Positions 15,727 to 59,916 of a stretch of 64,000 bases of DNA are shown piece after piece; the first letter of the stretch is position 1, and each line of letters starts with the position of its first letter. Source of the stretch: Patescibacteria group bacterium (GTDB lineage Bacteria > Patescibacteriota > Minisyncoccia > Phycocordibacterales > JAKAEA01); NCBI GenBank assembly GCA_040387855.1, contig JAZKCY010000001.1:104396-168395 (forward strand), read 5' to 3'. The position numbers and the translations under genes were made by a program. The notes beneath the pieces are model-generated. The model was given only the letters and a program-made list of their open reading frames with translations, had not been told where the DNA came from and ran no database searches.

Positions 15727-16578
15727 ATGAAAACATACCGACCAACAACAAAATCACGCCGAAATATGACCTCCATCAACTATGGAGACTATTTAACAGC
15801 GTCAGAACCACAGAAGTCACTTACTCATGGTTTCAAGCGATCAGTAGGACGCAACCATCATGGTAAAGTAACAACTCGACATAAGGGTTCAGGCCACAAG
15901 CGACTCTATCGAGATGTTGATTTCTCATACAACAAGTATGAAATCCCTGCAAAGATTGCAACTATCGAATATGATCCAAACCGAACAGGATTTATTGCAC
16001 TTGCAGTATATGCAGACGGAGAAAAGCGATACATTCTCGCTCCAAAATCAATGCGAGTAGGAGATACTTTCATTGTATCTGAGAAGGCAGATGTAAAGCC
16101 TGGAAACAGACTTCCATTAAGCAAAATCCCTGTAGGAACATTTGTATATAACGTAGAATTAAAGAAGAACGGAGGAGCAAAGATTGCTCGATCAGCAGGA
16201 AACTTCGTAGAAGTGATCGGTCATGATGCAGGATTTGCATTCATCAAAATGCCTTCAAGTGAAGTTCGACGAGTTGTTGATACAGGATTTGCATCAGTAG
16301 GAACCGTATCAAACGATGAAAACCGACTTGTTAATCTTGGAAAAGCGGGACGAAGTCGATGGTTGGGAATTCGACCAACAGTTCGAGGTACTGCCATGAA
16401 CCCAGTAGACCACCCATACGGAGGAGGAGAAGGACGACAGGGACGAGGAACTCGACGAGCAAAGTCTGTATACGGAAAGCCAACAGGAAAGGGACAGAAG
16501 TCACGACGAGCAAAGAAGTACTCAAACGTCTTCATTGTTTCTCGACGAAAAGTTGGAAAGAAGAAGGACAACAAATAA
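15727..16578 (+). CDS. rplB: 50S ribosomal protein L2
   Basis: 283 aa with an intact C-terminus, L2 family. Confidence 0.95.
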   Translation: MKTYRPTTKSRRNMTSINYGDYLTASEPQKSLTHGFKRSVGRNHHGKVTTRHKGSGHKRLYRDVDFSYNKYEIPAKIATIEYDPNRTGFIALAVYADGEKRYILAPKSMRVGDTFIVSEKADVKPGNRLPLSKIPVGTFVYNVELKKNGGAKIARSAGNFVEVIGHDAGFAFIKMPSSEVRRVVDTGFASVGTVSNDENRLVNLGKAGRSRWLGIRPTVRGTAMNPVDHPYGGGEGRQGRGTRRAKSVYGKPTGKGQKSRRAKKYSNVFIVSRRKVGKKKDNK

Positions 16579-16591
16579 TACTCCATACAAA

Positions 16592-16620
16592 AATCCCCAC
16601 CATCTGGTTGGGGTTTTTTG
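16592..16620 (+). terminator. rho-independent terminator immediately after rplB
   Basis: CCCCACC-ATCT-GGTTGGGG hairpin followed by TTTTTTG. Confidence 0.65.
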
Positions 16621-16706: not shown

Positions 16707-17618
16707 ATGGGAGAACTCGTGAACGACAAGCTTCCGATTCGTTGGTCAGGCGAGAAGCTGGTGGCATGCACTCACAGCGGACGGTTTCATGGTGATGAAA
16801 TCCATGCTGCCGGCGTCTTGGCTGCCCGCGGCATGGTTAACGAGTTTCGGCGGAGCCGAGACCCTGCAGTGCTCGCCACGTGTGATCTGCGTTTCGACGT
16901 GGGCTACATGTACGATTCAGCCACTATGGACTTCGACCACCATCAAGACGGTGGAGCCGGTGTTCGGGACAACGGTGTGCCGTATGCATCGGCCGGGCTT
17001 ATCTGGGCTCACTTCGGCCATGAGTTGTGCAACGACGATGCCGAGGTACATGCAGAGGTCGACAGGATCCTGTTCCAGCCGATCGACGCACGGGATGTGG
17101 GCTACGACAAGCACATCAAGGCTGGCCAGGGGCTCGTCTACGGCATTTCCGACGACATCCGTCGTCGCAACCCGCCGCCGTTTAGTGACGTAAATTCGGA
17201 CGCTGTCTTCTTAGAGGTGGTGGAGGAGGCCAGGCGTCGTATTGTCGCGGAAGTCGCACTCGTGACGACCGATCTCCGGATCATTCCTCCGTATATCGAG
17301 CGAATGCTCGCTGTTGCGGATACGCCGGGGCTGCTCGTGCTCGACATCGCCTACGACTGGCCCAAGGTTATGCAGAAGTACGCCCCGAACATCTCGGTGA
17401 TCGTCTTTCCGAGCGAAGACGAGAGCGGCTGGAGAGTTCAGTCGGTCAACCTGCAGAAGAGACCGTTGCCTCGTTTATGGGCTGGCAAAAACGGCGCGGA
17501 CATGGTGAAAGCCTCGGGTGTGGCAGACGCACAGTTCTGCAACGCTAAGGGTTATCTCGCCAGTGCCCAAAGCATGGAAGGCGCCGTGGCTTTAGCAGAA
17601 ATCGTGCTTCGAATATAG
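16707..17618 (+). CDS. MYG1/UPF0160-family metal-dependent hydrolase (3'-5' exonuclease-type), high GC (about 59%)
   Basis: Contains CTHSGRFHGDE, RSRDP, CDLRFDVG, DHHQ and SAGLIWAHFGH, matching the conserved MYG1 motifs across the full length. Composition is foreign relative to the surrounding ribosomal-protein genes. Confidence 0.85.
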   Translation: MGELVNDKLPIRWSGEKLVACTHSGRFHGDEIHAAGVLAARGMVNEFRRSRDPAVLATCDLRFDVGYMYDSATMDFDHHQDGGAGVRDNGVPYASAGLIWAHFGHELCNDDAEVHAEVDRILFQPIDARDVGYDKHIKAGQGLVYGISDDIRRRNPPPFSDVNSDAVFLEVVEEARRRIVAEVALVTTDLRIIPPYIERMLAVADTPGLLVLDIAYDWPKVMQKYAPNISVIVFPSEDESGWRVQSVNLQKRPLPRLWAGKNGADMVKASGVADAQFCNAKGYLASAQSMEGAVALAEIVLRI

Positions 17619-17619
17619 G

Positions 17620-17655
17620 AGGAGATCGACTCGTCGGTCTTGCTCCTTTTTTTTA
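17620..17655 (+). terminator. rho-independent terminator after the high-GC MYG1 gene
   Basis: GGAGATCGAC...GTCGGTCTTGCTCC imperfect hairpin followed by T8. Confidence 0.5.
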
Positions 17656-17681
17656 TACCTCTACAGTGATACGATATATCT

Positions 17682-18629
17682 ATGTTTACTACTATCTACA
17701 TTCCCACAAGAATTCAAAACGATACTGCATCAGCAATTTTTATATTAAAGAAATATGGCCGAGAAAAATTTCCAGGGATTGAAAACGCAAAGATAGAAAT
17801 TAGATCTGTTATACCTGTAGGTTTTACTGAAGAAGCTTTGGAAAAAGAGGGGATAGTACTTGTTGATATTGGAAAGGGTAAATTTGATCACCATGGCTCA
17901 GAAGTACAAATTACTTCAACCGATCTCGTATGTAAATTCTTGGGTGTTATAGATAATCCAGCATTAGAAAAGCTTCGAAAATATGTGGAGCGATGTGACT
18001 TTTTTGGTAAAGGCATTATTTCAAATGATCCATTAGATAGAGCTTTTGGATTGCCAGGGCTCCTTATAAATTTAAATAAAAAGCATAACTCAGAGCCAAA
18101 TTCTGTGTACCCAATAATTGCCGAACTTTTTGATGCTCACGTTTTAGAAGAAGAACAGCGTACAGTAGGGTTACCAAAAGAAGTTGAAGAAAAAACCACA
18201 GCTGGATTGGTGGATATATTTAGCCTCAAGCATCATGGCAAAAATATTAAGTGCATCTATATTGCTTCAGATAATATCAGCCTTTCAGGATACCTTCGTT
18301 CTCAAATGGGCGGAGCATATGATGTTGCGATTATTCATATGAGCACAGGACATATAAATATTATGACTCGTCCTGCCAAGCGTGTTGATTTACATGCTCT
18401 CATTGCTGTCATACGCCGCTCAGAGCTTATGAAACGTGGTGACGTGAAGCTCTACACCAATGATCTTCTTTCTCAGACAGGCCGCTTTGATAAGGTCCCT
18501 CAGTGGTATTATGATCCTGCTACAAACTCACTTCAAAACGGAGGGATCAATCCAGGGCAAATAGAAAAGACTGTACTCTCTCGAAAAGAAATAATTGAAT
18601 TGGTGAAAGTGGGATTGGGAGATAGATAA
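17682..18629 (+). CDS. divergent MYG1-like paralog (low GC); the N-terminal His/Asp metal motif is not conserved
   Basis: VLVDIGKGKFDHHG aligns to the DVG..DHHQ region of the upstream MYG1, but the THxGxFHxDE block reads TRIQNDTASA. Confidence 0.5.
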   Translation: MFTTIYIPTRIQNDTASAIFILKKYGREKFPGIENAKIEIRSVIPVGFTEEALEKEGIVLVDIGKGKFDHHGSEVQITSTDLVCKFLGVIDNPALEKLRKYVERCDFFGKGIISNDPLDRAFGLPGLLINLNKKHNSEPNSVYPIIAELFDAHVLEEEQRTVGLPKEVEEKTTAGLVDIFSLKHHGKNIKCIYIASDNISLSGYLRSQMGGAYDVAIIHMSTGHINIMTRPAKRVDLHALIAVIRRSELMKRGDVKLYTNDLLSQTGRFDKVPQWYYDPATNSLQNGGINPGQIEKTVLSRKEIIELVKVGLGDR

Positions 18630-18637
18630 TATTTTTT

Positions 18638-19087
18638 ATGATTATAGAACCAGATCAGCACTATTATGAAAATGGGAAATATGTGTGGACTCCTGAAAAA
18701 AGGGCTGCTGCGTGGGAAAAATGTTTTACTGTTTTAGAACAAGAAGCGACATCTGGAAAATTTAAAAAGATAGTGATGCTTATTGGCATTCCAGGAGCAG
18801 GGAAGAGTACCTACACTAAAGCTCATGATAGTGAGTCTACTATTATATTTGATGGAGTCTTTGTAAATCCGAAAGAACGGGAACGAGCTATTACTATTGC
18901 ACATTCAACAGGCCTTCCGATTGAAGGGGTGTGGCTTAATACACCTTTAGAAATATGTTTGGAAAGAAATGCTCAAAGAACTGATGATAGAAAGGTACGG
19001 GAGGATCATGTAACTATGATGTATGAGAATTTACAGAAAAATAAGCCTCGTTTAGAAGAGGGATATACGACATTTATAGAGCAATAA
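18638..19087 (+). CDS. small P-loop NTPase/kinase (AAA_33 / polynucleotide-kinase-like)
   Basis: 149 aa with Walker A GIPGAGKST, a downstream D/R-rich lid, and a size and architecture resembling Pnk/zeta-type kinase domains. Confidence 0.55.
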   Translation: MIIEPDQHYYENGKYVWTPEKRAAAWEKCFTVLEQEATSGKFKKIVMLIGIPGAGKSTYTKAHDSESTIIFDGVFVNPKERERAITIAHSTGLPIEGVWLNTPLEICLERNAQRTDDRKVREDHVTMMYENLQKNKPRLEEGYTTFIEQ

Positions 19088-19093
19088 AGACAC

Positions 19094-19121
19094 TTGACAA
19101 TATATATAGCTGTGCTATAAT
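19094..19121 (+). promoter_or_regulatory. consensus sigma70 promoter (TTGACA, 16-nt spacer, TATAAT) for the 19172 gene
   Basis: Perfect hexamers read directly from the sequence. Confidence 0.55.
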
Positions 19122-19171
19122 ATACACCGTACCAGTTCCGTCAGTTTTCACCTACTAGAAAGGGTCATTCC

Positions 19172-19855
19172 ATGACCGCTTCGTCCACCCCCAGCGTCGC
19201 TTCCGCCAAGATCCTGATGTCCAGCCTCCGCACCGTGAACCGGTTCGTGCTGAACTTCCAGGTCGAGGGCCTGCGCCCGCCGAGCAACTTCCCGCCGATC
19301 CGCGAGTGCGCCCCCCTCACCACGGGGACCAAGGCGCCCAAGCAGGTCGAGCGCGGCGAGAAGCTCGTCGAGCGGACCCGCGAGGTCTGCTCGCTCGATG
19401 CCCCGAGCATCATCAGCGCCTGCTTTGACGCCGGCCTGATCTACTGCAAGATGCTCATGCTCCCCAAGGGTCCGCCCACGGTCAGCATGCGCTTCAAGCG
19501 GCAGACGGAGCAGACCGACGCGGTCGCCCCGAACGACGCCAACTACCTCACGACGGAGATCGAGACGATCTACGGTCCGTGGATGGTGATGCTCCAGGGC
19601 TCGCTCCGGCTCGACTGCAACTTCGACCCCTACGGGCTCACCGTGGAGGAGGAGGCCGAGTACCTGCGGAAGCGCTACCGGAACGCCGGCACGCACAACG
19701 CGACGGAGATCGAGCGCAAGGTCAAGCAAGAGGCCACGGGCACGCCGTACCTCCTGACCGGGACGCACTACGTCGAGGCCCTGCGGCTCACCCCGCCGGC
19801 CTACCACAGGCTGTTCGCCCACGAGGGTGCGCTCCTGCTCGACGGCGAGCTCTAG
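19172..19855 (+). CDS. hypothetical protein, very high GC (about 65%, strongly GC3-biased), unknown function
   Basis: 227 aa with normal amino-acid composition and GC-ending codons. The overlapping minus-strand ORF 19148..19969 is judged to be a high-GC antisense artefact. Confidence 0.6.
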   Translation: MTASSTPSVASAKILMSSLRTVNRFVLNFQVEGLRPPSNFPPIRECAPLTTGTKAPKQVERGEKLVERTREVCSLDAPSIISACFDAGLIYCKMLMLPKGPPTVSMRFKRQTEQTDAVAPNDANYLTTEIETIYGPWMVMLQGSLRLDCNFDPYGLTVEEEAEYLRKRYRNAGTHNATEIERKVKQEATGTPYLLTGTHYVEALRLTPPAYHRLFAHEGALLLDGEL

Positions 19856-19911
19856 GTCGATGTTCGACCCAGCGTTTTGATGAACAATACCCCAAACTAG
19901 AAAGGTGAACA

Positions 19912-19940
19912 GGCCGATGCATAAACTGCATCGGCCTTTC
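19912..19940 (+). terminator. rho-independent terminator after the 19172 gene
   Basis: GGCCGATGCA-TAAAC-TGCATCGGCC perfect 10-bp stem followed by TTT. Confidence 0.6.
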
Positions 19941-19953
19941 ACTTGGGAAAGAT

Positions 19954-19980
19954 TTGACATGCTCCACACTTTCGTATAAT
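19954..19980 (+). promoter_or_regulatory. consensus sigma70 promoter (TTGACA, 15-nt spacer, TATAAT) re-initiating the rpsS-rplV-rpsC... operon
   Basis: Hexamers read directly from the sequence. Confidence 0.55.
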
Positions 19981-20031
19981 ATGTGACTCACGCTCTGAAC
20001 TAGAGCTCTTTTGTTTCATATATATCTATCC

Positions 20032-20385
20032 ATGGCACGATCACTCAAAAAAGGACCATACGTTGACGAAAAGCTTCTCAAGAAAATTGAGGGCAAAAAG
20101 CCACAGGCTACTGGGGTTATTAAGACCTGGGCACGTGCAAGTCAGATTTCACCAGAAATGGTAGGTTTTATCTTTGGCGTTCACAACGGTAAGGATCATA
20201 TCGAAGTTTTGGTATCTGAAGAAATGGTGGGTCATCGTCTTGGTGAATTTTCTCCAACAAAGAAATTCCTACGACACGGAGGTAAGATGCAGAAGGAGCT
20301 TGAACAGAAAAAGAAGGAATCAGAAATTGCAGCAGCGCAATCTGCTAAGGCTGCAACAGCTGATGCCGGTGCTAAGAAAAAATAA
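20032..20385 (+). CDS. rpsS: 30S ribosomal protein S19 (Lys/Ala-rich C-terminal extension)
   Basis: [12 protein letters not shown] matches S19. The start is placed at the internal ATG of the ORF listed from 20011. Confidence 0.9.
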
Positions 20386-46345: not shown

Positions 46346-47641
46346 TTAGAAGAACTTGAGCATGAAGGTGATGATGATGAACAATACACCCAGGATGCTC
46401 ACGCTCCAGATGATGTAGCCAAAGAACGAAGGCATCGAGATCCCGCGCCGTTTGGCAATGGCGAAGATCATAAAGTTTGGCGCATTGCCAATGTAGGTGA
46501 GTGCCCCCATATACACGGCGCCAAGACTGATGGCCTTCACGAGGTCTGGTGATTGTGCTGTCAGGTGGGGAAGCGAGGTCGAACCCGTTGTCGATTCGGC
46601 CATCGACATGAATACCAGGAACGTCGGCGCATTGTCGAGCACCGACGAGAACACACCGGTTGCCCAGAAGTACTGTGCTGGCTCGCTCACTCCAAGCGAC
46701 GAACCTGAATGCTGCAGCAGCTGCAGTGCTGGGACCATTGTCATGAAGATCCCGGCGAATACGACTGCCACCTCCACTATCGGTCCGAACTCGAAGTTGT
46801 TTTTTTGTCGCGCCTCTTTTGCAATTGGCGCGAGCTTCGAGTACACGAGTGATATGACGATGGTGATCACGAAGATCACTTCACGCCACGGGCTCGCTAC
46901 CGCAATGACACTGCCTACGATCACCATCATGAGCACTGCATTGCCAAGGCCGATGAGCATGAGTGGCTCCACATGCTCTTTGTCTTGAGCAATATCTTCG
47001 TTGGACTCCTTGTTGTAAAAGTACTTGTCGATCACGAGGTACACAGCGAGCAACACGATGCCGCTCACCAACCAGTAGACCCAAAGATTTCGGGCAAACC
47101 AGAAGAATTCGATTCCTCGCAAGTAGCCGAGGAAGAGCGGTGGGTCACCGAGGGGAGTGAGTAACCCTCCGAGATTGCTTACCAAAAAGATGAAAAACAC
47201 GACAGTATGCCGCACGTGTTTTCGTTCTTGGTTGCTTCGCAATAGTGGATAGATCATGAGGATCGAGGCACCCATTGTGCCCACAACACTCGCCATGATG
47301 TATCCGCTCGCAAGCATCATCGCATTGCGGCCCGGCGTTGCTCGCAGATCACCCTTGATGTGGATGCCTGAGGCAACGATGAACAGCGCAGCGAGGAGCA
47401 GTATGAACTGCACAAATTCGATCCCCGCATGCACGATCAAGTTTCGATCGTGCTGTGCCACGTAGATGGCAACTGGTAAGCCGAGCGTGAGGATCACGCA
47501 CAATTTCACCCAGTTTTTTTCCCACGCATGCTTGGTAAAGCTCACGAGGGGAAGGACTGCGATGAGGCCGAGCAGCACCGCAAACGGCACTACCGACCAC
47601 AGTGTTGGAATCCACGAACTTGCTGCAAGTGATGAAATCAC
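46346..47641 (-). CDS. ArsB/NhaD-superfamily permease (putative ion/anion transporter), elevated GC (about 54%)
   Basis: LTPLGDPPLFLGY matches the TPxGDPPN-type motif, with multi-TM topology. A GTG start sits behind a GAGAGGG Shine-Dalgarno. Confidence 0.6.
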   Translation of the reverse strand: MISSLAASSWIPTLWSVVPFAVLLGLIAVLPLVSFTKHAWEKNWVKLCVILTLGLPVAIYVAQHDRNLIVHAGIEFVQFILLLAALFIVASGIHIKGDLRATPGRNAMMLASGYIMASVVGTMGASILMIYPLLRSNQERKHVRHTVVFFIFLVSNLGGLLTPLGDPPLFLGYLRGIEFFWFARNLWVYWLVSGIVLLAVYLVIDKYFYNKESNEDIAQDKEHVEPLMLIGLGNAVLMMVIVGSVIAVASPWREVIFVITIVISLVYSKLAPIAKEARQKNNFEFGPIVEVAVVFAGIFMTMVPALQLLQHSGSSLGVSEPAQYFWATGVFSSVLDNAPTFLVFMSMAESTTGSTSLPHLTAQSPDLVKAISLGAVYMGALTYIGNAPNFMIFAIAKRRGISMPSFFGYIIWSVSILGVLFIIITFMLKFF

Positions 47642-47777
47642 GACACCCTCTCTGTAAGAACAATTGAATCCGTTCAATCGACGGTCAGACTTTTAAATAC
47701 CACATTATATATATAAAGTCAATATACTAGCAAATAAAAAACCATGAAGCGCGATGGTTTGTCGCGCACTCATGGTG

Positions 47778-48173
47778 TTAAATACTTAGCCCGATTTCTA
47801 TCCGCAAAAGCTCTGAACACCTCTGCATGTCTTCAATCGGTAAGACATGTGCTTCCTTGAAATCTCGATGTCGATCTCTTACTTCTGGGATATCAAACAC
47901 CGACTTCTTGATCATCCGGAAGCAGGCAGGATCATTTTTGATGATTGCCCAGTCTTCACCGGAACCGATGATGATTCCGCATACAAAAGCGATCCACATG
48001 TCCCACGCCTTGAACGAGTGTAGCTCGTCGTTGGGAACTTCCGGTTTCCACGTGGGCAGTGGGCCTGGGTTAAACTTTGCCTGTCCGCGTTGGAAGTAAA
48101 TCATCGAGGTCGTGGGATTGTTTCTTCCATACACCCACAGACACTCAACCGCTGGCAGTTTCACAGACATCAA
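47778..48173 (-). CDS. hypothetical protein, moderately elevated GC
   Basis: 131 aa ORF followed by an ACCAT...ATGGT hairpin and T-run. Confidence 0.4.
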   Translation of the reverse strand: MMSVKLPAVECLWVYGRNNPTTSMIYFQRGQAKFNPGPLPTWKPEVPNDELHSFKAWDMWIAFVCGIIIGSGEDWAIIKNDPACFRMIKKSVFDIPEVRDRHRDFKEAHVLPIEDMQRCSELLRIEIGLSI

Positions 48174-48245
48174 TACCTCCTCGGTTTTGTACAGTAAAGG
48201 TACCGTAGATGATAGTACTAAAATCCAATAAAAAGGCCAGTCGAT

Positions 48246-48449
48246 TTATTTAACTAGATATTTGCCGGCAACACTGAGTGCAAATGAAGGTAAAATAATA
48301 CACACAGTAGTTTGAAGTAATCTAATAAGCACAATGTTGAAGACGGTGCTTCCATCACCATCAGGAGGAGTTGTTGCAATTAGAAGGATGCCAATAATAC
48401 CGAAAGCTATAGATGCGTAGATAAATATTTTAGTAGCAATAGGTTGCAT
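48246..48449 (-). CDS. small membrane protein
   Basis: 67 aa, 2 TM. Confidence 0.35.
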   Translation of the reverse strand: MQPIATKIFIYASIAFGIIGILLIATTPPDGDGSTVFNIVLIRLLQTTVCIILPSFALSVAGKYLVK

Positions 48450-48460
48450 AGAAGTAGTAA

Positions 48461-48664
48461 TTATTTTTTATATTCCAAAACATCACCTGGCTGGCAGTCT
48501 AATGCTTTGCAGATTGCATCAAGAGTTGTAAGTCGTACTGCTTTTGCTTTGCCGTTTTTCAAGATAGAAAGATTGGCCATAGTAATGCCCACTTTTTCTG
48601 TGAGTTCAGTAACGCTCATTTTTCGCTTTGCAAGCATAACGTCAATGTTGATAATAATTGCCAT
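48461..48664 (-). CDS. small XRE-family HTH transcriptional regulator (YozG-like)
   Basis: MSVTELTEKVGITMANLSILKNGKAKAVRLTTLDAICKALDCQPGD. Confidence 0.8.
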   Translation of the reverse strand: MAIIINIDVMLAKRKMSVTELTEKVGITMANLSILKNGKAKAVRLTTLDAICKALDCQPGDVLEYKK

Positions 48665-48671
48665 AAATAGT

Positions 48672-49190
48672 TTATACAGTTAATTCGTTTTCCTTTTTAA
48701 TATCAACAACATTCTGTAAGAGTTTTTGTAGTACACCTGCAAAGGTGGCAATGATAAGTGGTGAACATACAAACGTCATTGCAAAAAGAATGAGTCCAGG
48801 TGCATCATCTCCATCAGCAATAAAAAATGCGAGCGGCATAATAAATACATAACACAAGGTCATACTACCTGCGCAGTACTTTATTGTTTTTAGAGCATTC
48901 ACTGATTCCTGAGAGAACGCAGTGTTCTTATCAATGTATGTTAAAAGCTTGAGACCTTGATAGAGTGCGATGAAAAAGGGAATAGCACTGAGATATAGTC
49001 CTACAAATGCGAAAGGTTGCGACTCTTTAATTCCTGGCCACTCAAGTGCCATTCCTCTATATATGTGAGGGAATGCAAAAATGCAGAGGGCGAGTACCGC
49101 GAGTCCAAATACGATAATGACTGCTTTTAAAAATAATGTTGATCCTTTATTCATAAAACTATGATTAGTTGATGATAAAGAGCTTAGCAT
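48672..49190 (-). CDS. DUF2975-like membrane protein (the usual partner of YozG-like HTH)
   Basis: 172 aa, 4 TM, with the conserved gene pairing. Confidence 0.5.
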   Translation of the reverse strand: MLSSLSSTNHSFMNKGSTLFLKAVIIVFGLAVLALCIFAFPHIYRGMALEWPGIKESQPFAFVGLYLSAIPFFIALYQGLKLLTYIDKNTAFSQESVNALKTIKYCAGSMTLCYVFIMPLAFFIADGDDAPGLILFAMTFVCSPLIIATFAGVLQKLLQNVVDIKKENELTV

Positions 49191-49265
49191 GGCGTATATC
49201 GTAAGTCAATAAATATATATTGTTTTATTATTTTGACTATAAAAAAAGCACTAATGACTTTAGTG

Positions 49266-49892
49266 CTATTTCGATGTATTGCGAACTGCGGCGAAGCATG
49301 TATTCTCCCAAGGGACCCTGAGATCCTGCCCTCCGGTCATGAAGTAGTTTGGAGCGAGTTGGAGTACTCGCTTGTTACTAATCTTCATGAGTACTGGGTT
49401 GTACCCAACGTGGGGTGGGCTCGTGTTGGTTTTATCAAACACCATTTCCCCAAGTGCCAGTACGATGTGGTCGTTCTGGAACTCGGGGTATTTGGCGCCG
49501 AAGGCCAAGAGCTCGACGAGATTTGCCGGACGGCAGTCGTTGTCGACGATGATCTTTAGGATGTCGTTCGTACGCATACTGCGTTCGAACGAAAACATGA
49601 CCATCGTTTCTTCAGCGCTCGCTCGAGTGGTGTCCGAAATTGTACGCGGAATTCGCGGGTTAACCTCCACATACGTACCACGCTCGATATACTCATGCGA
49701 GCTGAGTGTCCGATCAACGGCAACCGAAAATTCTTTCGTTCGAACTTCTGGTCCCGATTCCTTGATCGGGTTCGTCATCGCTTTTTCCTGGGCCTCCTTC
49801 ATCAACCGCTCGCCCTCGTTGTGGGGCGCGCAGCCGATGGTGAGGCCGAGGATCATGACGATGAGGAACGACAGACGGGGAAGCAGTGACAT
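49266..49892 (-). CDS. lipoprotein of unknown function, high GC (about 57%)
   Basis: Signal peptide with lipobox LTIGC. Confidence 0.55.
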   Translation of the reverse strand: MSLLPRLSFLIVMILGLTIGCAPHNEGERLMKEAQEKAMTNPIKESGPEVRTKEFSVAVDRTLSSHEYIERGTYVEVNPRIPRTISDTTRASAEETMVMFSFERSMRTNDILKIIVDNDCRPANLVELLAFGAKYPEFQNDHIVLALGEMVFDKTNTSPPHVGYNPVLMKISNKRVLQLAPNYFMTGGQDLRVPWENTCFAAVRNTSK

Positions 49893-50058
49893 GGTTTCTC
49901 CTTGCAGGGCGCACTGGCTTTTAGTTTCTGCACATGCAGTTACTTCTTGCCAGTAAAGAACGGATCATCAGTACTACATCATATTTAATAATATAAGTCA
50001 AATATAGTTTTTAAATAAAAAACCGCACTACATACACATTGTGTAGACAGGCGGCGAA

Positions 50059-51132
50059 TCAAGTTTGAGGTTTACCTAAAGAACGGAGCAGTCTGTAGTG
50101 GGACACAATGGCCAACCACATCGTGTCGTGTGAGTGGTAGGTCAGTTCGTGGCGTTTGCAGACCCGTCGTACGAGCCTGCAAATTTTGGGGTAGTGGATG
50201 TGGGAAATCCTGGGGAAGAGGTGGTGCTCGATCTGGTAATTTAATCCTCCTAGGAACCAGGTGAGCACTTTGTTTTTTGGAGCGAAGTTGGCCGTCGTGA
50301 GCACTTGATGCTCCGCCCACGCATTTTCCATTGCTCCCTGTTCGGGGTCTGGAAGCGGGAACTTTGTTTCTTCCACTACATGGGCAAGTTGGAATACGAC
50401 GGCAAGTACCACACCCATACACCAACTGGCGAAAAGGTACACGAGCACTACCTGCCAGAACGGATGGAAGAGCGAAGGGATGACAAACGCCCATGTATAG
50501 AACAGAAGCTTGCCTCCAATGAACGTTGCTAGATGCACTCCTCGTGGGCGCGCGAACGGATATTTCCCGATCCGTCCACGTATGACGTTGAGGAAGTCAT
50601 CGAAGAGTTGCCACTTCACAGGAACCAATCCGTACACAAACCACAAATAAATGTGTTGCACGCGGTGAAACCAAAGCCTGGGTTGCGTGGGCGCGAGACG
50701 CCCTAAGATCCCAGTATTGATGTCATCGTCATGCTCCGCAATATTTGTGTATGTGTGATGGACGATGTTGTGCTTGTGCGTCCACACGTACGAACTTCCC
50801 CCTATGGCATCGAGTGAGAATGCAGCGAGACGGTTGATCCATCGGTGTTTTGAAAACGCCTGATGATTCCCGTCGTGCTGAATGCAAAACCCGATTCCTG
50901 CCATCGCCAATCCAATGCTCATGGCGAGCAACATCGCTTGCCACCACGCGGTGGCAAAGAATACGAGCACGATGTAGCTCGCTGCTAGCCACAGCATGAG
51001 CGTGACCGCCTTCACGTAGAGGTCGGCAGTAGCATGGCGACTGCGCTTGGTCATCGCAAAGTAGCGATCCACCGTTTTTTTGAGGTCAGAGAAAAAATCG
51101 CTACGCTTCCGAAACTTGACTGGGGTGATCAT
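50059..51132 (-). CDS. membrane fatty-acid desaturase family protein, high GC
   Basis: Three His boxes: HDGNH, HNIVHH and HQIEHH. Start at the ATG behind GAAAGGAGGG. Confidence 0.8.
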   Translation of the reverse strand: MITPVKFRKRSDFFSDLKKTVDRYFAMTKRSRHATADLYVKAVTLMLWLAASYIVLVFFATAWWQAMLLAMSIGLAMAGIGFCIQHDGNHQAFSKHRWINRLAAFSLDAIGGSSYVWTHKHNIVHHTYTNIAEHDDDINTGILGRLAPTQPRLWFHRVQHIYLWFVYGLVPVKWQLFDDFLNVIRGRIGKYPFARPRGVHLATFIGGKLLFYTWAFVIPSLFHPFWQVVLVYLFASWCMGVVLAVVFQLAHVVEETKFPLPDPEQGAMENAWAEHQVLTTANFAPKNKVLTWFLGGLNYQIEHHLFPRISHIHYPKICRLVRRVCKRHELTYHSHDTMWLAIVSHYRLLRSLGKPQT

Positions 51133-51237
51133 GACACCCTCCTTTCGTTGTAATGCAATTGGTGCTGGTCCAACCAAAGTATACCATCTTGGATGTATAT
51201 TAATTTGAAAGCAGAATCGCAAAGAAATAAAAAGTAC

Positions 51238-52008
51238 CTATACCTCAGAATTCAATATCATTTCAATTTCTTTTTTTACATCCTCATCACTCTTTGTAGG
51301 CATGAGATCTCCTTTTTGATTTCCATAATTACCAGCTTGAGCATGATTCATTCCTTCAATAGGGAAGTCTCTCTGTGACGTTGGAAGATTGCTGCTATAT
51401 GCTGAGAGTTTTTCAGGAGTTAATACACCATCAAGAGAACCATGAATATTTACTACCTTAAAGTTTTTACTTGATACATCGCTGTTGCAGTAGGTTCCTA
51501 CTAAGAGTAATGTCTCAAACTTTTCTGCATGATTTTTTGCATACTCACATGCCATTGCTCCTCCCATTGAATGACCGCCAAGAGTCCATGTTTTTATTTC
51601 AGGATGTGTATCAATTATTTTACCAGCTTGGCCAATACTAAATATCGCGAGATTTAAAGGAGGTTTAGTAACAAACAATATAGAAGGAGAAGAAGTGCTG
51701 GTGACAATACTTTCTAATTTATAAAAGTAAGCTTGAGGATCAACTTTTGCTCCAGGATAATAGATAACTCCTTTTGTAGATGTTGTCGCATTAGGAGCAA
51801 TCTCCCAGTATTTTGGATGCTCAGTTACTGTTATAAGATCTTTATTTGTATTTAAAAATTCTTGAAGTTTAGTTTGATCGGCTTTGTAAATTTGCTTTGC
51901 CCAGATTACAAAAGAAATAACAGCGATCAATAGGAGCGTTATAAGCGTAAGAACTATTTTCCTCCAGAGCTTCATTTTCTTAGGGGTAGGTTGGATAGCG
52001 GTTTGCAT
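51238..52008 (-). CDS. alpha/beta-hydrolase (lipase/esterase-like) with N-terminal TM anchor
   Basis: GHSMGG nucleophile elbow. The start is placed at the internal ATG so it does not overlap the upstream gene. Confidence 0.6.
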   Translation of the reverse strand: MQTAIQPTPKKMKLWRKIVLTLITLLLIAVISFVIWAKQIYKADQTKLQEFLNTNKDLITVTEHPKYWEIAPNATTSTKGVIYYPGAKVDPQAYFYKLESIVTSTSSPSILFVTKPPLNLAIFSIGQAGKIIDTHPEIKTWTLGGHSMGGAMACEYAKNHAEKFETLLLVGTYCNSDVSSKNFKVVNIHGSLDGVLTPEKLSAYSSNLPTSQRDFPIEGMNHAQAGNYGNQKGDLMPTKSDEDVKKEIEMILNSEV

Positions 52009-52138
52009 AAAATATATTATAAAGTGTTTTTTGTTTGTAGGATATTCATAAATAAAAAACTGCGAGATGCATAGAGATGTGAATCTCTCGGCTTTCTCGC
52101 AATAAGTTGGTTGGATGATCCTAACCGATCTTTTCCCT

Positions 52139-52816
52139 TCATTCCTCACTAAGAGGAAATTGGGTCGGAAGTTTCTCGACATGACGTACCATGACATCGA
52201 AACCTCTAAGAATTGTTGGCACGTCTACGCCCGAAAGCTTCACGTGTCCGAATCCCATCTGCCCCATGTCGAGAATCGTGACAACCGTCTCATTTGTCTC
52301 CACCTTGACCTCGATCCTTAAGATGCAGGAAAACTCGGAATCACCGATGCCTTCCAGCCTGCTCTTGAAGTGAGGTAACATCCCGAGCTTGGTGGCGTTG
52401 GACAAGACCCTGTCAGGGATTTCATACATCGCCACGACTTTGCACGGACCGGAGCGCATCTTGAAATACGTAGGGGCCCCAGGTTGCTTGTCGCCGAAGA
52501 CCCGCACGAAATCGTCCGCATCAGTCTCAACTTTATGCTGTGCTGTCACGGGTAAGGACAGCACTAAGGATGTGTCATCCTTAAATTCGGCTTTCCCTCC
52601 ATGAACACCGAATTTAGCCAGAAAGTCGCCGGCAATGTCTTCACCCAGCCTACGTGCTCCTTCTGGTGCCTGAAGATACCATTCCCTCTGGTCACCAGTG
52701 AACCCCGTTCCGATCAAGCGCACTTGAGGATTTCCCGATTTCACAATGCCTCCAAGGCAAGGGTTGTTTGATGAGAACTCTAAGAGGAAATTATAATAAA
52801 ATACATGAGTTGTCAA
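52139..52816 (-). CDS. hypothetical protein, high GC
   Basis: 225 aa ORF with coding-like composition and no recognised family. Confidence 0.45.
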   Translation of the reverse strand: MTTHVFYYNFLLEFSSNNPCLGGIVKSGNPQVRLIGTGFTGDQREWYLQAPEGARRLGEDIAGDFLAKFGVHGGKAEFKDDTSLVLSLPVTAQHKVETDADDFVRVFGDKQPGAPTYFKMRSGPCKVVAMYEIPDRVLSNATKLGMLPHFKSRLEGIGDSEFSCILRIEVKVETNETVVTILDMGQMGFGHVKLSGVDVPTILRGFDVMVRHVEKLPTQFPLSEE

Positions 52817-52899
52817 TTTTATTGTGAAAGTATCTAAAAGAAATAAAAATCCGCAAGAGAGTCGAGGAGAGAATTGAATCTCTCGCGGCTTTCTTGCGG

Positions 52900-53238
52900 C
52901 TACTCATCTTGCATGTGAAGCGACAACCTGATCATCGTGAACCATCTCGCAGGCACGAAATGTGTCGTCTTGAATTCCCCGGGTGTTCGTTCGTGGGGGA
53001 AGTTCACGACCTTACCCGTCTCAGGGGTGTAGGTGGTCAGCCCCATTTCGTTGGGGTTGCAGTTTATGAACTCGGAGTAGAGCTCATCAGGGTCGTTGGG
53101 ATGTACACCCATCACCCCTCGTTCATCTGCCCGGAATCTCCGGATGATCTCGATGACCTCTCCGACTTCATGCCAGCCCCAACTCGCATATGGTTCTGGA
53201 ATGTCTTTGAATCGATGCAAAGCGGGTAACACTTTCAC
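52900..53238 (-). CDS. hypothetical protein, high GC
   Basis: 112 aa ORF with a GTG start behind an AAGGA Shine-Dalgarno. Confidence 0.4.
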   Translation of the reverse strand: MKVLPALHRFKDIPEPYASWGWHEVGEVIEIIRRFRADERGVMGVHPNDPDELYSEFINCNPNEMGLTTYTPETGKVVNFPHERTPGEFKTTHFVPARWFTMIRLSLHMQDE

Positions 53239-53344
53239 GTTTATTCCTTACCACCTTATGGTGGCTGCATAGGAATCTGTTCTTACCTTGGGCTCCCAAG
53301 GTTTCTGCCATTGGTTATATAAAAAATAATAGAAGACTGCAAGT

Positions 53345-53372
53345 AATAAAAAGCCCCGCTAGCATGCCGGGG
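53345..53372 (-). terminator. rho-independent terminator overlapping the stop codon of the 53359 gene
   Basis: CCCCG-CTAGCATGC-CGGGG followed by CTTTTTATT on the - strand. Confidence 0.5.
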
Positions 53373-53739
53373 TGAGACTGCGGGCTCGATTGATGAGCAC
53401 TTCCAAATAGCTGTGCACATCATAATCGAACCACTTCTTTGGACTGTTCGGGTTGAGAATCTTGTCCCTGCTAAACGCCACATGCCCGAGTGGTTCACAC
53501 GCATCCGCAAGATCAGGATAACCTCTCGGCCAGGTTGGCGGATGATGATATCCGGTATAGAGTGTCGCGTCGATAAGGCACGGCTTGTGGTGTGGCAGGG
53601 AACTGAGCTTCACATCCCATGGTACAACTTTAAGCGTGATGAACCCTCGGGCTTTTATGATCCCGAAGATGATCGGCGACAACATTCGCCGCTGGTCCAA
53701 TGGAACGTCGTGAACGACAGTGAGCAACGTAAGAATCAT
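53359..53739 (-). CDS. hypothetical protein, high GC
   Basis: 126 aa ORF with an ATG start behind an AGGAGGG Shine-Dalgarno. Confidence 0.45.
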   Translation of the reverse strand: MILTLLTVVHDVPLDQRRMLSPIIFGIIKARGFITLKVVPWDVKLSSLPHHKPCLIDATLYTGYHHPPTWPRGYPDLADACEPLGHVAFSRDKILNPNSPKKWFDYDVHSYLEVLINRARSLTPAC

Positions 53740-56770: not shown

Positions 56771-56817
56771 AGGTGGCTTGCCACGAGTGATCCTGCGTTC
56801 TTGCGCGGCGAATCGAG

Positions 56818-57226
56818 TGGAGATGGCGGGAATCGAACCCGCGTGCAAAAGAAGTTCTTAAATGGGTCTACAATGTATAGAGAATCTTAACCACCCGAAG
56901 GTGGGTTTAAACGCAGTGGGTAAAAAGATAATCAAAATTCCCACGTTGCCGAGTCCCTTTATTTCGATCAATCATCGGAACGAGTGAAAGATCTATCTCA
57001 ACGATATACCACCAACACTTAGTAAGTTGAGAAAAAACTAAGGTGGCGTCGTCTGGCTACCGTTTAAAGGGGTTTACGCGAGAGCGAAAGCGAAGTTACT
57101 TGCGTAAGGCGAAGCAACTGCTGTTCGTGCTGATTTTGCACTTGAAGTTTCCGTCAGATTTAAGAGTTAACGGTGCTCTACATTGCGCAGATAAGAAACA
57201 AACTCTTGTCTAGGCCGATCATCCCC
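56818..57226 (-). ncRNA. ssrA: tmRNA (transfer-messenger RNA)
   Basis: The 5' GGGGATG pairs with the 3' CATCTCC-A, including the G3:U70 alanine identity pair. The T-arm reads GCGGGTTCGATTCCCGC. There is an internal in-frame tag ORF ...AVASPYASNFAFALA* ending in TAA. smpB lies immediately upstream. Confidence 0.85.
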
Positions 57227-59842: not shown

Positions 59843-59916
59843 TCCACCCTCTTGGATTCGAACCAAGGACCACCGAGGTATAAGCTCGGTGCTCTAACCA
59901 ACTGAGCTAAGGGTGG
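59843..59916 (-). tRNA. tRNA with anticodon UAU (Ile-type, AUA-reading), 74 nt, CCA not encoded
   Basis: Manual fold: acceptor CCACCCT/AGGGTGG, D-arm GCTC-AGTTGGTTA-GAGC, anticodon arm CCGAG-CTTATAC-CTCGG, variable loop TGGTC, T-arm CTTGG-TTCGAAT-CCAAG, discriminator A. Confidence 0.75.

Follow-up and report, generated by a model that had tools for sequence, protein, structure and literature searches.

The locus described here lies in a 64,000-nucleotide stretch of DNA (the window, by which we mean the stretch at its full length) from a Patescibacteria genome that is Paceibacteria-like and has a G+C content (GC) of ~39%. It consists of a 3.4-kb insert between the ribosomal protein genes rplB and rpsS that carries four open reading frames (ORFs), all on the + strand and called genes 1 to 4 below. 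The locus is also covered by NCBI annotation (V4519_00685/00695, with tags V4519_006xx, on a 981-kb contig). A synthetic insert or an assembly chimera is ruled out, since Logan contig L001, an independent assembly, is 100% identical across 12.1 kb with its layout unchanged and L086, from another sample and holding the closest relative of gene 2, shares both layout and GC mosaic. The features are as follows, GC3 being the GC at third codon positions:

15727..16578, + strand: rplB (ribosomal protein L2), the upstream flank; an ORF with Pfam Ribosomal_L2_N/C matches on the identical L001
16595..16619, + strand: hairpin CCCCA...TGGGG followed by a T-run just 3' of rplB, terminator-like, read from the sequence
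16707..17618, + strand: gene 1, a MYG1/UPF0160-family DHH phosphoesterase of 303 amino acids, 58% GC (PF03690)
17622..17641, + strand: terminator-like hairpin with T-run in the gap between genes 1 and 2 (signal scan)
17682..18629, + strand: gene 2, 315 amino acids, native 38% GC, DHH/DHHA1-fold family (homologs, AlphaFold2, fold matches)
18638..19087, + strand: gene 3, a P-loop kinase of 149 amino acids, Pnk-like by best matches (AAA_33, 4gp6, PHROG)
19094..19121, + strand: sigma-70-type promoter-like site 5' of gene 4, TTGACA-16-TATAAT, 12/12, with TG (signal scan)
19172..19855, + strand: gene 4, 227 amino acids, no recognised family, 67.5% GC, GC3 0.965 (frame composition)
19911..19937, + strand: perfect 11-bp hairpin 3' of gene 4 (inverted repeat I12)
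19954..19982, + strand: promoter-like site before rpsS, TTGACA-17-TAATAT (signal scan)
20032..20385, + strand: rpsS (ribosomal protein S19), the downstream flank (Pfam Ribosomal_S19 on L001 6533-6886)

In composition the insert is a mosaic, with 58% GC in gene 1, 37-38% in genes 2 and 3 and 67.5% in gene 4; GC3 is 0.68 in gene 1 and 0.26-0.28 in genes 2 and 3, like that of the flanking ribosomal genes. Genes 2 and 3 are separated by 8 nucleotides (gene 3 starts after the gene 2 stop codon), and judged by the signals listed above, gene 1, genes 2-3 and gene 4 seem to be transcribed as about three units, not as one operon; a sequence-only reading of this DNA had proposed the block as a candidate module. 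L086 has the same arrangement of transcription signals, including an equivalent promoter-like site 5' of its gene 4 homolog. The hairpin downstream of rplB (16595..16619) was not returned by the consensus scan for such signals, and the promoter-like site at 19954..19982 would restart transcription into rpsS. No long repeats bounding the insert were found. The 9-mer CTAGAAAGG has one copy at 19155-19163, immediately ahead of the start of gene 4, and another at 19889-19897, directly behind its stop; it could be an element resembling a ribosome-binding site or else a short repeat flanking the gene, but is too short to evaluate.

Gene 2 matches no Pfam family at E values up to 1 and no NCBIfam family, DHH/DHHA1 models included, and a profile of its family finds no MYG1 or DHH match among solved chains. 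Its AlphaFold2 model, with a predicted local distance difference test score (pLDDT) of 94.3, matches solely DHH-superfamily structures in Foldseek (NrnA, RecJ, family II pyrophosphatase), the closest folds also including the TM1595 phosphodiesterase, PggH, GdpP and exopolyphosphatase; its matches in BFVD are viral DHH phosphohydrolases. This high-confidence model predicts a two-domain DHH plus DHHA1 fold with the catalytic motifs present. The protein carries DIGKGKFDHH, and D14, D62, D69, H70 and H71 never vary in an alignment of 78 family sequences, conservation of G223 and H224 reaches at least 90%, and the C-terminal SGH motif, whose Gly-His is motif IV, is near-invariant. Motif I is shortened to Q12-x-D14, and the same alignment holds a family-specific signature, WYYDPATNSLQNGG. 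The sequence-only reading had called gene 2 a MYG1-like paralog. Its place in the DHH superfamily is upheld, by the fold matches and by an hhalign comparison of the gene 2 family with a MYG1 alignment (53% probability, E 1.3e-4, 138 columns) in which the metal-binding motifs align, but paralogy is not: BLASTP of gene 1 against gene 2 returns nothing significant and gene 2 has no PF03690 match. Given this weak similarity in BLASTP and profiles, gene 2 is related to MYG1 distantly, at the level of the superfamily, and is not its close paralog.

The family is sizeable, with 157 homologs detected, all unnamed, in metagenome-assembled genomes (MAGs) of Paceibacteria, Yanofskybacteria, Taylorbacteria and the like; a genome scan places relatives in at least 148 species, restricted to Patescibacteria-like MAGs. 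An N-terminal extension is present in 26/79 homologs, and 20 of these 26 have both HxT/S motifs of the 2H superfamily. Pfam labels for these fusions are LigT_PEase, 2_5_RNA_ligase2 and tRNA_lig_CPD; in several, the 2H domain matches the model of the Trl1 cyclic phosphodiesterase (CPD) domain, PF08302, and one shows a weak AKAP7-type 2H match. An example of these fusions is the 514-amino-acid protein of L038. The searchable literature gave us no published description of the gene 2 family, nor of Patescibacteria proteins with a 2H-DHH fusion, nor of such an insertion in a ribosomal operon. As a separate observation, 15 loci hold a divergent gene 2 paralog of ~350 amino acids, placed upstream of the active copy at a distance of one or two genes (L006:6870-7925, L060:6153-7247, L074:1131-2213 and 12 other loci), which keeps a C-terminal WYY...NGG and has YNR in place of DHH; it may be an inactive partner subunit.

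For genomic context we surveyed 79 GTDB loci with gene 2 homologs together with L086. A link to the ribosomal operon, noted earlier from the sequence alone, recurs: gene 2 lies in or beside the ribosomal-protein superoperon at 13/79 loci, in L086 and in the window (15 genomes), and does so at three positions, namely between L2 and S19 (11 genomes), between L5 and S8 (L022, L041) and upstream of tuf-S10 (L024, L004). That it lies there, and at three distinct positions, argues for co-regulation of gene 2 with the translation apparatus. All 11 occupied L2-S19 gaps contain gene 2, while the rest of their cargo differs among genomes, the total ranging from 1 to ~9 genes. MYG1 is found within a few genes of gene 2 at 6/79 loci and in L086 (7 loci), the order in L086 being L2, MYG1, gene 2, an ORF that we call X, and S19. 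Between the window and L086, identity is 37% for MYG1 and 27% for X, compared with 62% for gene 2 and a range of 68-85% among ribosomal proteins, and the GC mosaic is kept. At L021:4582-5160, at L039:5007-5492 and in L018, the rplB-rpsS gap has an ORF that resembles ribosomal protein L10 by its sequence and lies ahead of an alanine-rich gene that may be L7/L12; judged by the L10-like ORF, this gap would also receive translation genes.

Gene 1 is confidently assigned from its sequence to the MYG1 (UPF0160) family, as had been proposed. It matches PF03690 (MYG1_exonuc) at E 2.4e-42 and 146.1 bits (cut-off 22.1) over profile positions 3-316 of 318, and the alignment of its residues 22-301 to MYG1 exonuclease chains of solved structure has an E of 3e-17. 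The metal-binding motifs THSGRFHGDE, FDVG and FDHHQ are all in the translation, as is SAGLIWAHFGH, and T22, H23, H28, D30, D64, G66, D77, H78 and H79 are invariant in an alignment of seven MYG1 sequences. Its identity to any other Patescibacteria MYG1 that we examined is ~37% at most. MYG1 has been shown experimentally to be a DHH-motif 3'-5' RNA exonuclease that takes part in the processing of rRNA precursors and in the assembly of ribosomes (PMC6582341).

Gene 3 matches AAA_33 at E 6.7e-14 with GIPGAGKST as its Walker A motif, and the kinases it resembles best are all polynucleotide or tRNA kinases: the CthPnkp kinase domain 4gp6 (E 3.7e-6) and T4 Pnk among solved structures, PHROG 505 'polynucleotide kinase' (E 1.8e-10), and the NCBIfam models TIGR04075 bacter_Pnkp and PSTK, all of the latter far below their equivalog cut-offs. 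There is also a weak match to Zeta_toxin (E 2.6e-5). The family is small, with three further proteins (P0124, P0125, P0126) among 5.8 billion clusters; its four members have G50, P52, G53, G55, K56, S57 and T58 invariant, along with R110, N111 and R114 of the lid, and the lid LERNAQRT aligns with VKRNSKRG of T4 Pnk (R122/R126 region, RNxxR) and QERNKNRT of CthPnkp. A circular permutation of gene 3 was considered and is unsupported: once de-permuted, the sequence gives a contiguous alignment to T4 Pnk, CthPnkp and mammalian PNKP, but shuffling the moved segment as a control leaves the score at the same level (z 0 to 2.7). We also rejected gene 3 as a conserved partner of gene 2, the pairing occurring in the window genome only. 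P0126, of 159 amino acids and canonical layout, is directly followed by a Metallophos_2 phosphoesterase (L082:247-1469), which has the appearance of a split Pnkp-like pair, probably in a phage; the same contig bears genes for Band_7, a VgrG3-like/amidase protein and RNase H. At L084:716-1219, beside a gene 3 homolog of 47% identity, lies an HPN...C protein that by eye resembles ubiquitin-conjugating E2-type enzymes.

Gene 4 is without a recognisable family, just as it had appeared at first sight: it has no match in Pfam, NCBIfam, PADLOC or PHROGs and, with a two-sequence profile, none in the PDB. The 2H, Tpt1, ligase and toxin families that had been suggested for comparison gave no profile match in any library searched. 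A search of 5.8e9 protein clusters returned gene 4 itself alone, exhaustive HMMER over 1.84e9 representatives gave one other match, P0122, which is a repetitive artefact, and no relatives were found in phage records, viral contigs or two metagenome scans. A single-sequence AlphaFold2 model is unusable (pLDDT 33). GC at its first, second and third codon positions is 0.61/0.46/0.965, a periodicity that marks the + frame as the coding frame. On the same measure the minus-strand 273-amino-acid ORF in 19148-19969, which is the choice of the Logan gene caller, is an antisense artefact; a similar artefact appears in longest-ORF maps of several related loci as antisense ORFs rich in Arg, Leu, Asp, Val and Gly. 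That 19148-19969 is a structured RNA was rejected on account of the + frame GC3 of 0.965 and a protein-level homolog in that frame, and Rfam and ARAGORN scans of the high-GC segment found nothing. The sole homolog detected is X, a 185-amino-acid ORF (GC3 0.77) between gene 2 and rpsS in L086; the two share 27% identity across 156 residues with a Smith-Waterman score of 96, compared with 29.9 +/- 4.6 for 2000 shuffles, none of which reached it (z 14). In the reading that we favour below, gene 4 is a separate, self-promoted unit.

GC-rich neighbours are a recurring trait of gene 2 loci. Defining a GC-rich ORF as one on the same strand as gene 2 with a GC at least 10 points above that of its genome, we found 40/55 of them within 1.5 kb of gene 2, where 24% would be expected (binomial p 4e-14). 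Such ORFs occur at 32/79 loci with a GC3 of 0.62-0.90, in genomes of 36-53% GC, and at these loci gene 2 itself keeps host composition; 9/10 of those scanned have no Pfam domain. The examples that follow are from loci L002-L081:

L002:2641-4799: GC-rich ORF, strand of gene 2
L012:2231-2782: GC-rich ORF, strand of gene 2
L021:9083-9661: GC-rich ORF, strand of gene 2
L036:7066-7914: GC-rich ORF, strand of gene 2
L071:7110-7823: GC-rich ORF, strand of gene 2

A small group of GC-rich proteins that we call family A fills the slot between gene 2 and rpsS at L012:2231-2782, L019:2384-2977, L021:9083-9661, L027:1046-1582 and L039:8977-9606. Its motif VRxxFN...LIPxWVxE is C-terminal in those five and N-terminal in L038:5771-6277 and L016:9009-9677, which suggests circular permutation. 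Kinship of gene 4 and X with family A is not demonstrable (hhalign E 0.12-0.55, Smith-Waterman z <1.5). Simple recent transfer does not explain a mosaic that persists with no donor to be identified; these GC-rich companions may be due to repeated replacement or to selection on GC3.

How may these pieces fit together? The reading that we favour, with a probability of roughly 45%, sees the block as an accessory island, specific to its lineage, that occupies the rplB-rpsS gap, cleans or trims RNA ends and has gene 2 as its anchor. Gene 2 would act on RNA 3' ends by exonucleolytic trimming, by removal of 3'-phosphates or by both, and in roughly one in four of its relatives ends with a 2',3'-cyclic phosphate would first be opened by the fused 2H domain. 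The Pnk-like gene 3 would phosphorylate 5'-OH ends, and gene 1, a MYG1-type 3'-5' RNA exonuclease, is encoded ahead of gene 2. The enzymes together would clean the 2',3'-cyclic phosphate and 5'-OH ends that metal-independent endoribonucleases leave behind. Targets might be stable RNAs of translation, in their maturation or quality control, or fragments fed into decay. While the folds, families, fusions, synteny and transcription signals given above are observations, it is the substrates, the order of reactions and the cooperation of the proteins that we infer. Independent support for an RNA-end reading comes from the 2H fusions, from the Pnk-like kinase and from the recurrent links to MYG1 and the ribosomal operon.

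Several points weigh against it. Among the four proteins there is no ligase, RtcB or Hen1/methyltransferase match in Pfam or NCBIfam, and the four-gene set is found at 0/79 other loci and not in L086. The RNA-end healing logic that the sequence-only reading saw in the locus gains from the 2H fusions and the kinase matches but lacks those healing partners, and the set of four genes recurs nowhere in our survey. At most other loci gene 2 has unrelated housekeeping neighbours, among them FtsH, ParB, RelA/SpoT and MiaA (identities judged from representative sequences). With a hairpin and T-run splitting genes 1 and 2 and an own promoter-like site at gene 4, joint transcription of all four genes appears unlikely. 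Nor does the fold settle the substrate, as DHH/DHHA1 and 2H enzymes act on nanoRNA and on cyclic and 2'-5' oligonucleotides. In gene 1, the conserved C-terminal His (human FVHASGF) is Asn (FCNAKGY); it is Ser in the L086 MYG1 and kept in six other Patescibacteria MYG1 sequences. As for gene 3, no kinase homolog occurs at the 79 other loci or in L086, two close homologs sit in unrelated contexts, and a segment of ~40 amino acids after the P-loop helix is missing from gene 3, P0124 and P0125. This segment, present in P0126 (SRDNVR), bears the catalytic Asp in T4 Pnk and CthPnkp and binds the acceptor, so T4 D35 and R38 (catalytic Asp and Arg) have no counterpart in gene 3; instead, gene 3, P0124 and P0125 share a conserved N-terminal extension of 40 amino acids. 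The earlier label of a Pnk-like kinase holds in terms of best matches but not for the catalytic-Asp segment, and from its sequence gene 3 is best described as a Pnk-like kinase with a non-canonical acceptor side.

A first alternative, which we take seriously though we doubt it, is that the genes have no joint function: the rplB-rpsS gap would be a permissive hot spot of insertion or recombination, filled with moron-like promoter-gene-terminator cassettes of different origins, and the match between nuclease and kinase logic would be coincidence. The three-way GC mosaic (58%, 37-38%, 67.5%) fits such a history, as do the separate promoter-like and terminator-like signals that flank the units, gap cargo varying from 1 to ~9 genes, a kinase unique to the window genome among genomes with gene 2, and the low identities of MYG1 (37%) and X (27%) to their L086 counterparts, which would be in line with replacement or rapid turnover. 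Against a mere hot spot stand the presence of gene 2 in all 11 occupied L2-S19 gaps as well as at two other operon positions, and its adjacency to MYG1, which recurs in several genomes. Moreover, the 2H fusions couple the chemistry of gene 2 to RNA-end enzymes, and genes 2 and 3, only 8 nucleotides apart, have a common native composition.

An RNA-end island would also have to give way if gene 2, together with MYG1, served the turnover of nucleotides or oligonucleotides as a nanoRNase or (cyclic) oligonucleotide phosphodiesterase of reduced genomes. Substrates may then include 2-5-mers, 3'-phosphoadenosine 5'-phosphate (pAp), cyclic di-AMP (c-di-AMP) and 2'-5'-linked and cyclic oligoadenylates, with the 2H domain opening 2'-5' or cyclic linkages. 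The closest folds to gene 2 (NrnA, TM1595, PggH, GdpP, exopolyphosphatase) are compatible with this, DHH phosphodiesterases are known to work on a range of cyclic linkages and 2H enzymes do likewise in conflict contexts (PMC7824862), activities that fit, and the AKAP7-type match in one fusion points the same way. To our minds this is nonetheless unlikely, in that it gives no role to the Pnk-like kinase adjacent to gene 2 and sits poorly with 2H domains that match the tRNA-ligase CPD and LigT types, which act on RNA ends. Neither a cyclase nor a CBASS (cyclic oligonucleotide-based antiphage signalling system) or CRISPR context was seen in the neighbourhoods examined, and PADLOC gave no match.

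More speculative still, and in our view improbable, is the idea that the gene 2 family and its GC-rich, fast-diverging companions (MYG1-like, gene 4/X, family A and others) make up an as yet unrecognised RNA-directed quality-control or conflict system of Patescibacteria that is wired into ribosomal-protein operons, with the extreme GC3 itself under selection and not a leftover of horizontal transfer. Selected GC3 could, for instance, shield mRNAs from an A/U-directed nuclease or throttle the translation of a harmful partner. A classical conflict system (toxin-antitoxin, defence or counter-defence), with a Zeta-like kinase or a nuclease as effector and gene 4 as its immunity or specificity partner, is very unlikely: for all the weak Zeta_toxin match of gene 3 (E 2.6e-5), the protein resembling an E2-type enzyme by eye beside one close kinase homolog, and companions of gene 2 whose fast divergence and atypical composition are common among conflict genes, the best matches of the kinase are polynucleotide kinases and not zeta toxins, neither gene 2 nor gene 4 gave a phage match in tblastn, the position is in an essential operon, conservation of gene 2 is broad and vertical-looking, and the defence link once suspected was rejected, PADLOC having no match for any of the four proteins nor for three companions encoded at other loci.

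Elsewhere in the window, the only Rfam matches are a tmRNA gene at 56815-57226 (78 bits) and a tRNA gene at 59843-59916, on the minus strand. A second, moderately GC-rich gene set (50-53% GC) occupies 46346-53739 on the minus strand; among its products are a CitMHS_2 transporter, a fatty-acid desaturase and several proteins without a Pfam family. Interleaved with genes of native GC, these have the look of ordinary metabolic genes acquired horizontally.

In Patescibacteria, whose genomes are minimal, the enzymes of RNA maturation and decay are little known; the gene 2 family is a concrete candidate to supply an activity that the phylum is missing, be it RNA 3'-end processing or that of a nanoRNase. 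With its perfect consensus promoter, atypical GC, downstream hairpin and position between conserved genes, gene 4 recalls phage morons, but it sits in a cellular ribosomal-protein operon and no phage context or phage homolog was found for it. Gene 1 aligns end to end with MYG1/UPF0160 proteins, far above the family threshold and with HxGxFHxDE, DVG and DHHQ kept, and the known rRNA-processing role of MYG1 fits its location in a ribosomal operon; unlike them, it has no C-terminal His and is GC-rich, and gene 2, with no PF03690 match and a marginal profile-profile match, is not a member. What gene 2 has in common with DHH/DHHA1 enzymes (NrnA, RecJ, GdpP/PggH, family II pyrophosphatase) is the fold, the DHH triad, the upstream Asp and the C-terminal Gly-His; it differs from them in lacking any sequence-level match to Pfam models or solved chains and in its Q-x-D motif I, its own WYYDPATNSLQNGG signature and its frequent N-terminal 2H fusions.

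The healing module of fungal and plant Trl1 (5'-OH kinase plus 2H cyclic phosphodiesterase) employs the same chemistries as the gene 2-fused 2H domain and a kinase would, although none of the genomes examined has both the 2H domain and the kinase, a ligase domain is absent, and the DHH-fold domain of gene 2 has no counterpart in Trl1. Closer in its pairing of kinase and phosphoesterase is Pnkp (C. thermocellum Pnkp/Hen1, T4 Pnkp), which provides the best solved matches of gene 3 and, in the case of CthPnkp, is echoed by the gene 3 relative P0126 next to its calcineurin-type phosphoesterase. Here, by contrast, the phosphoesterase has a DHH fold rather than an HAD (haloacid dehalogenase) or calcineurin one, the polypeptides are separate, gene 3 is without the canonical acceptor-binding segment, and the pair has no ligase or Hen1 partner and was seen in this one genome only. 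If kinase and DHH phosphoesterase are indeed paired, they would amount to a third structural version of kinase-plus-phosphatase end healing, after the HAD type of T4 and the calcineurin type of Clostridium. The novelty of the locus is that of a variant of kinase-plus-phosphoesterase RNA-end enzymes and of DHH nucleases, with a compositional puzzle added.

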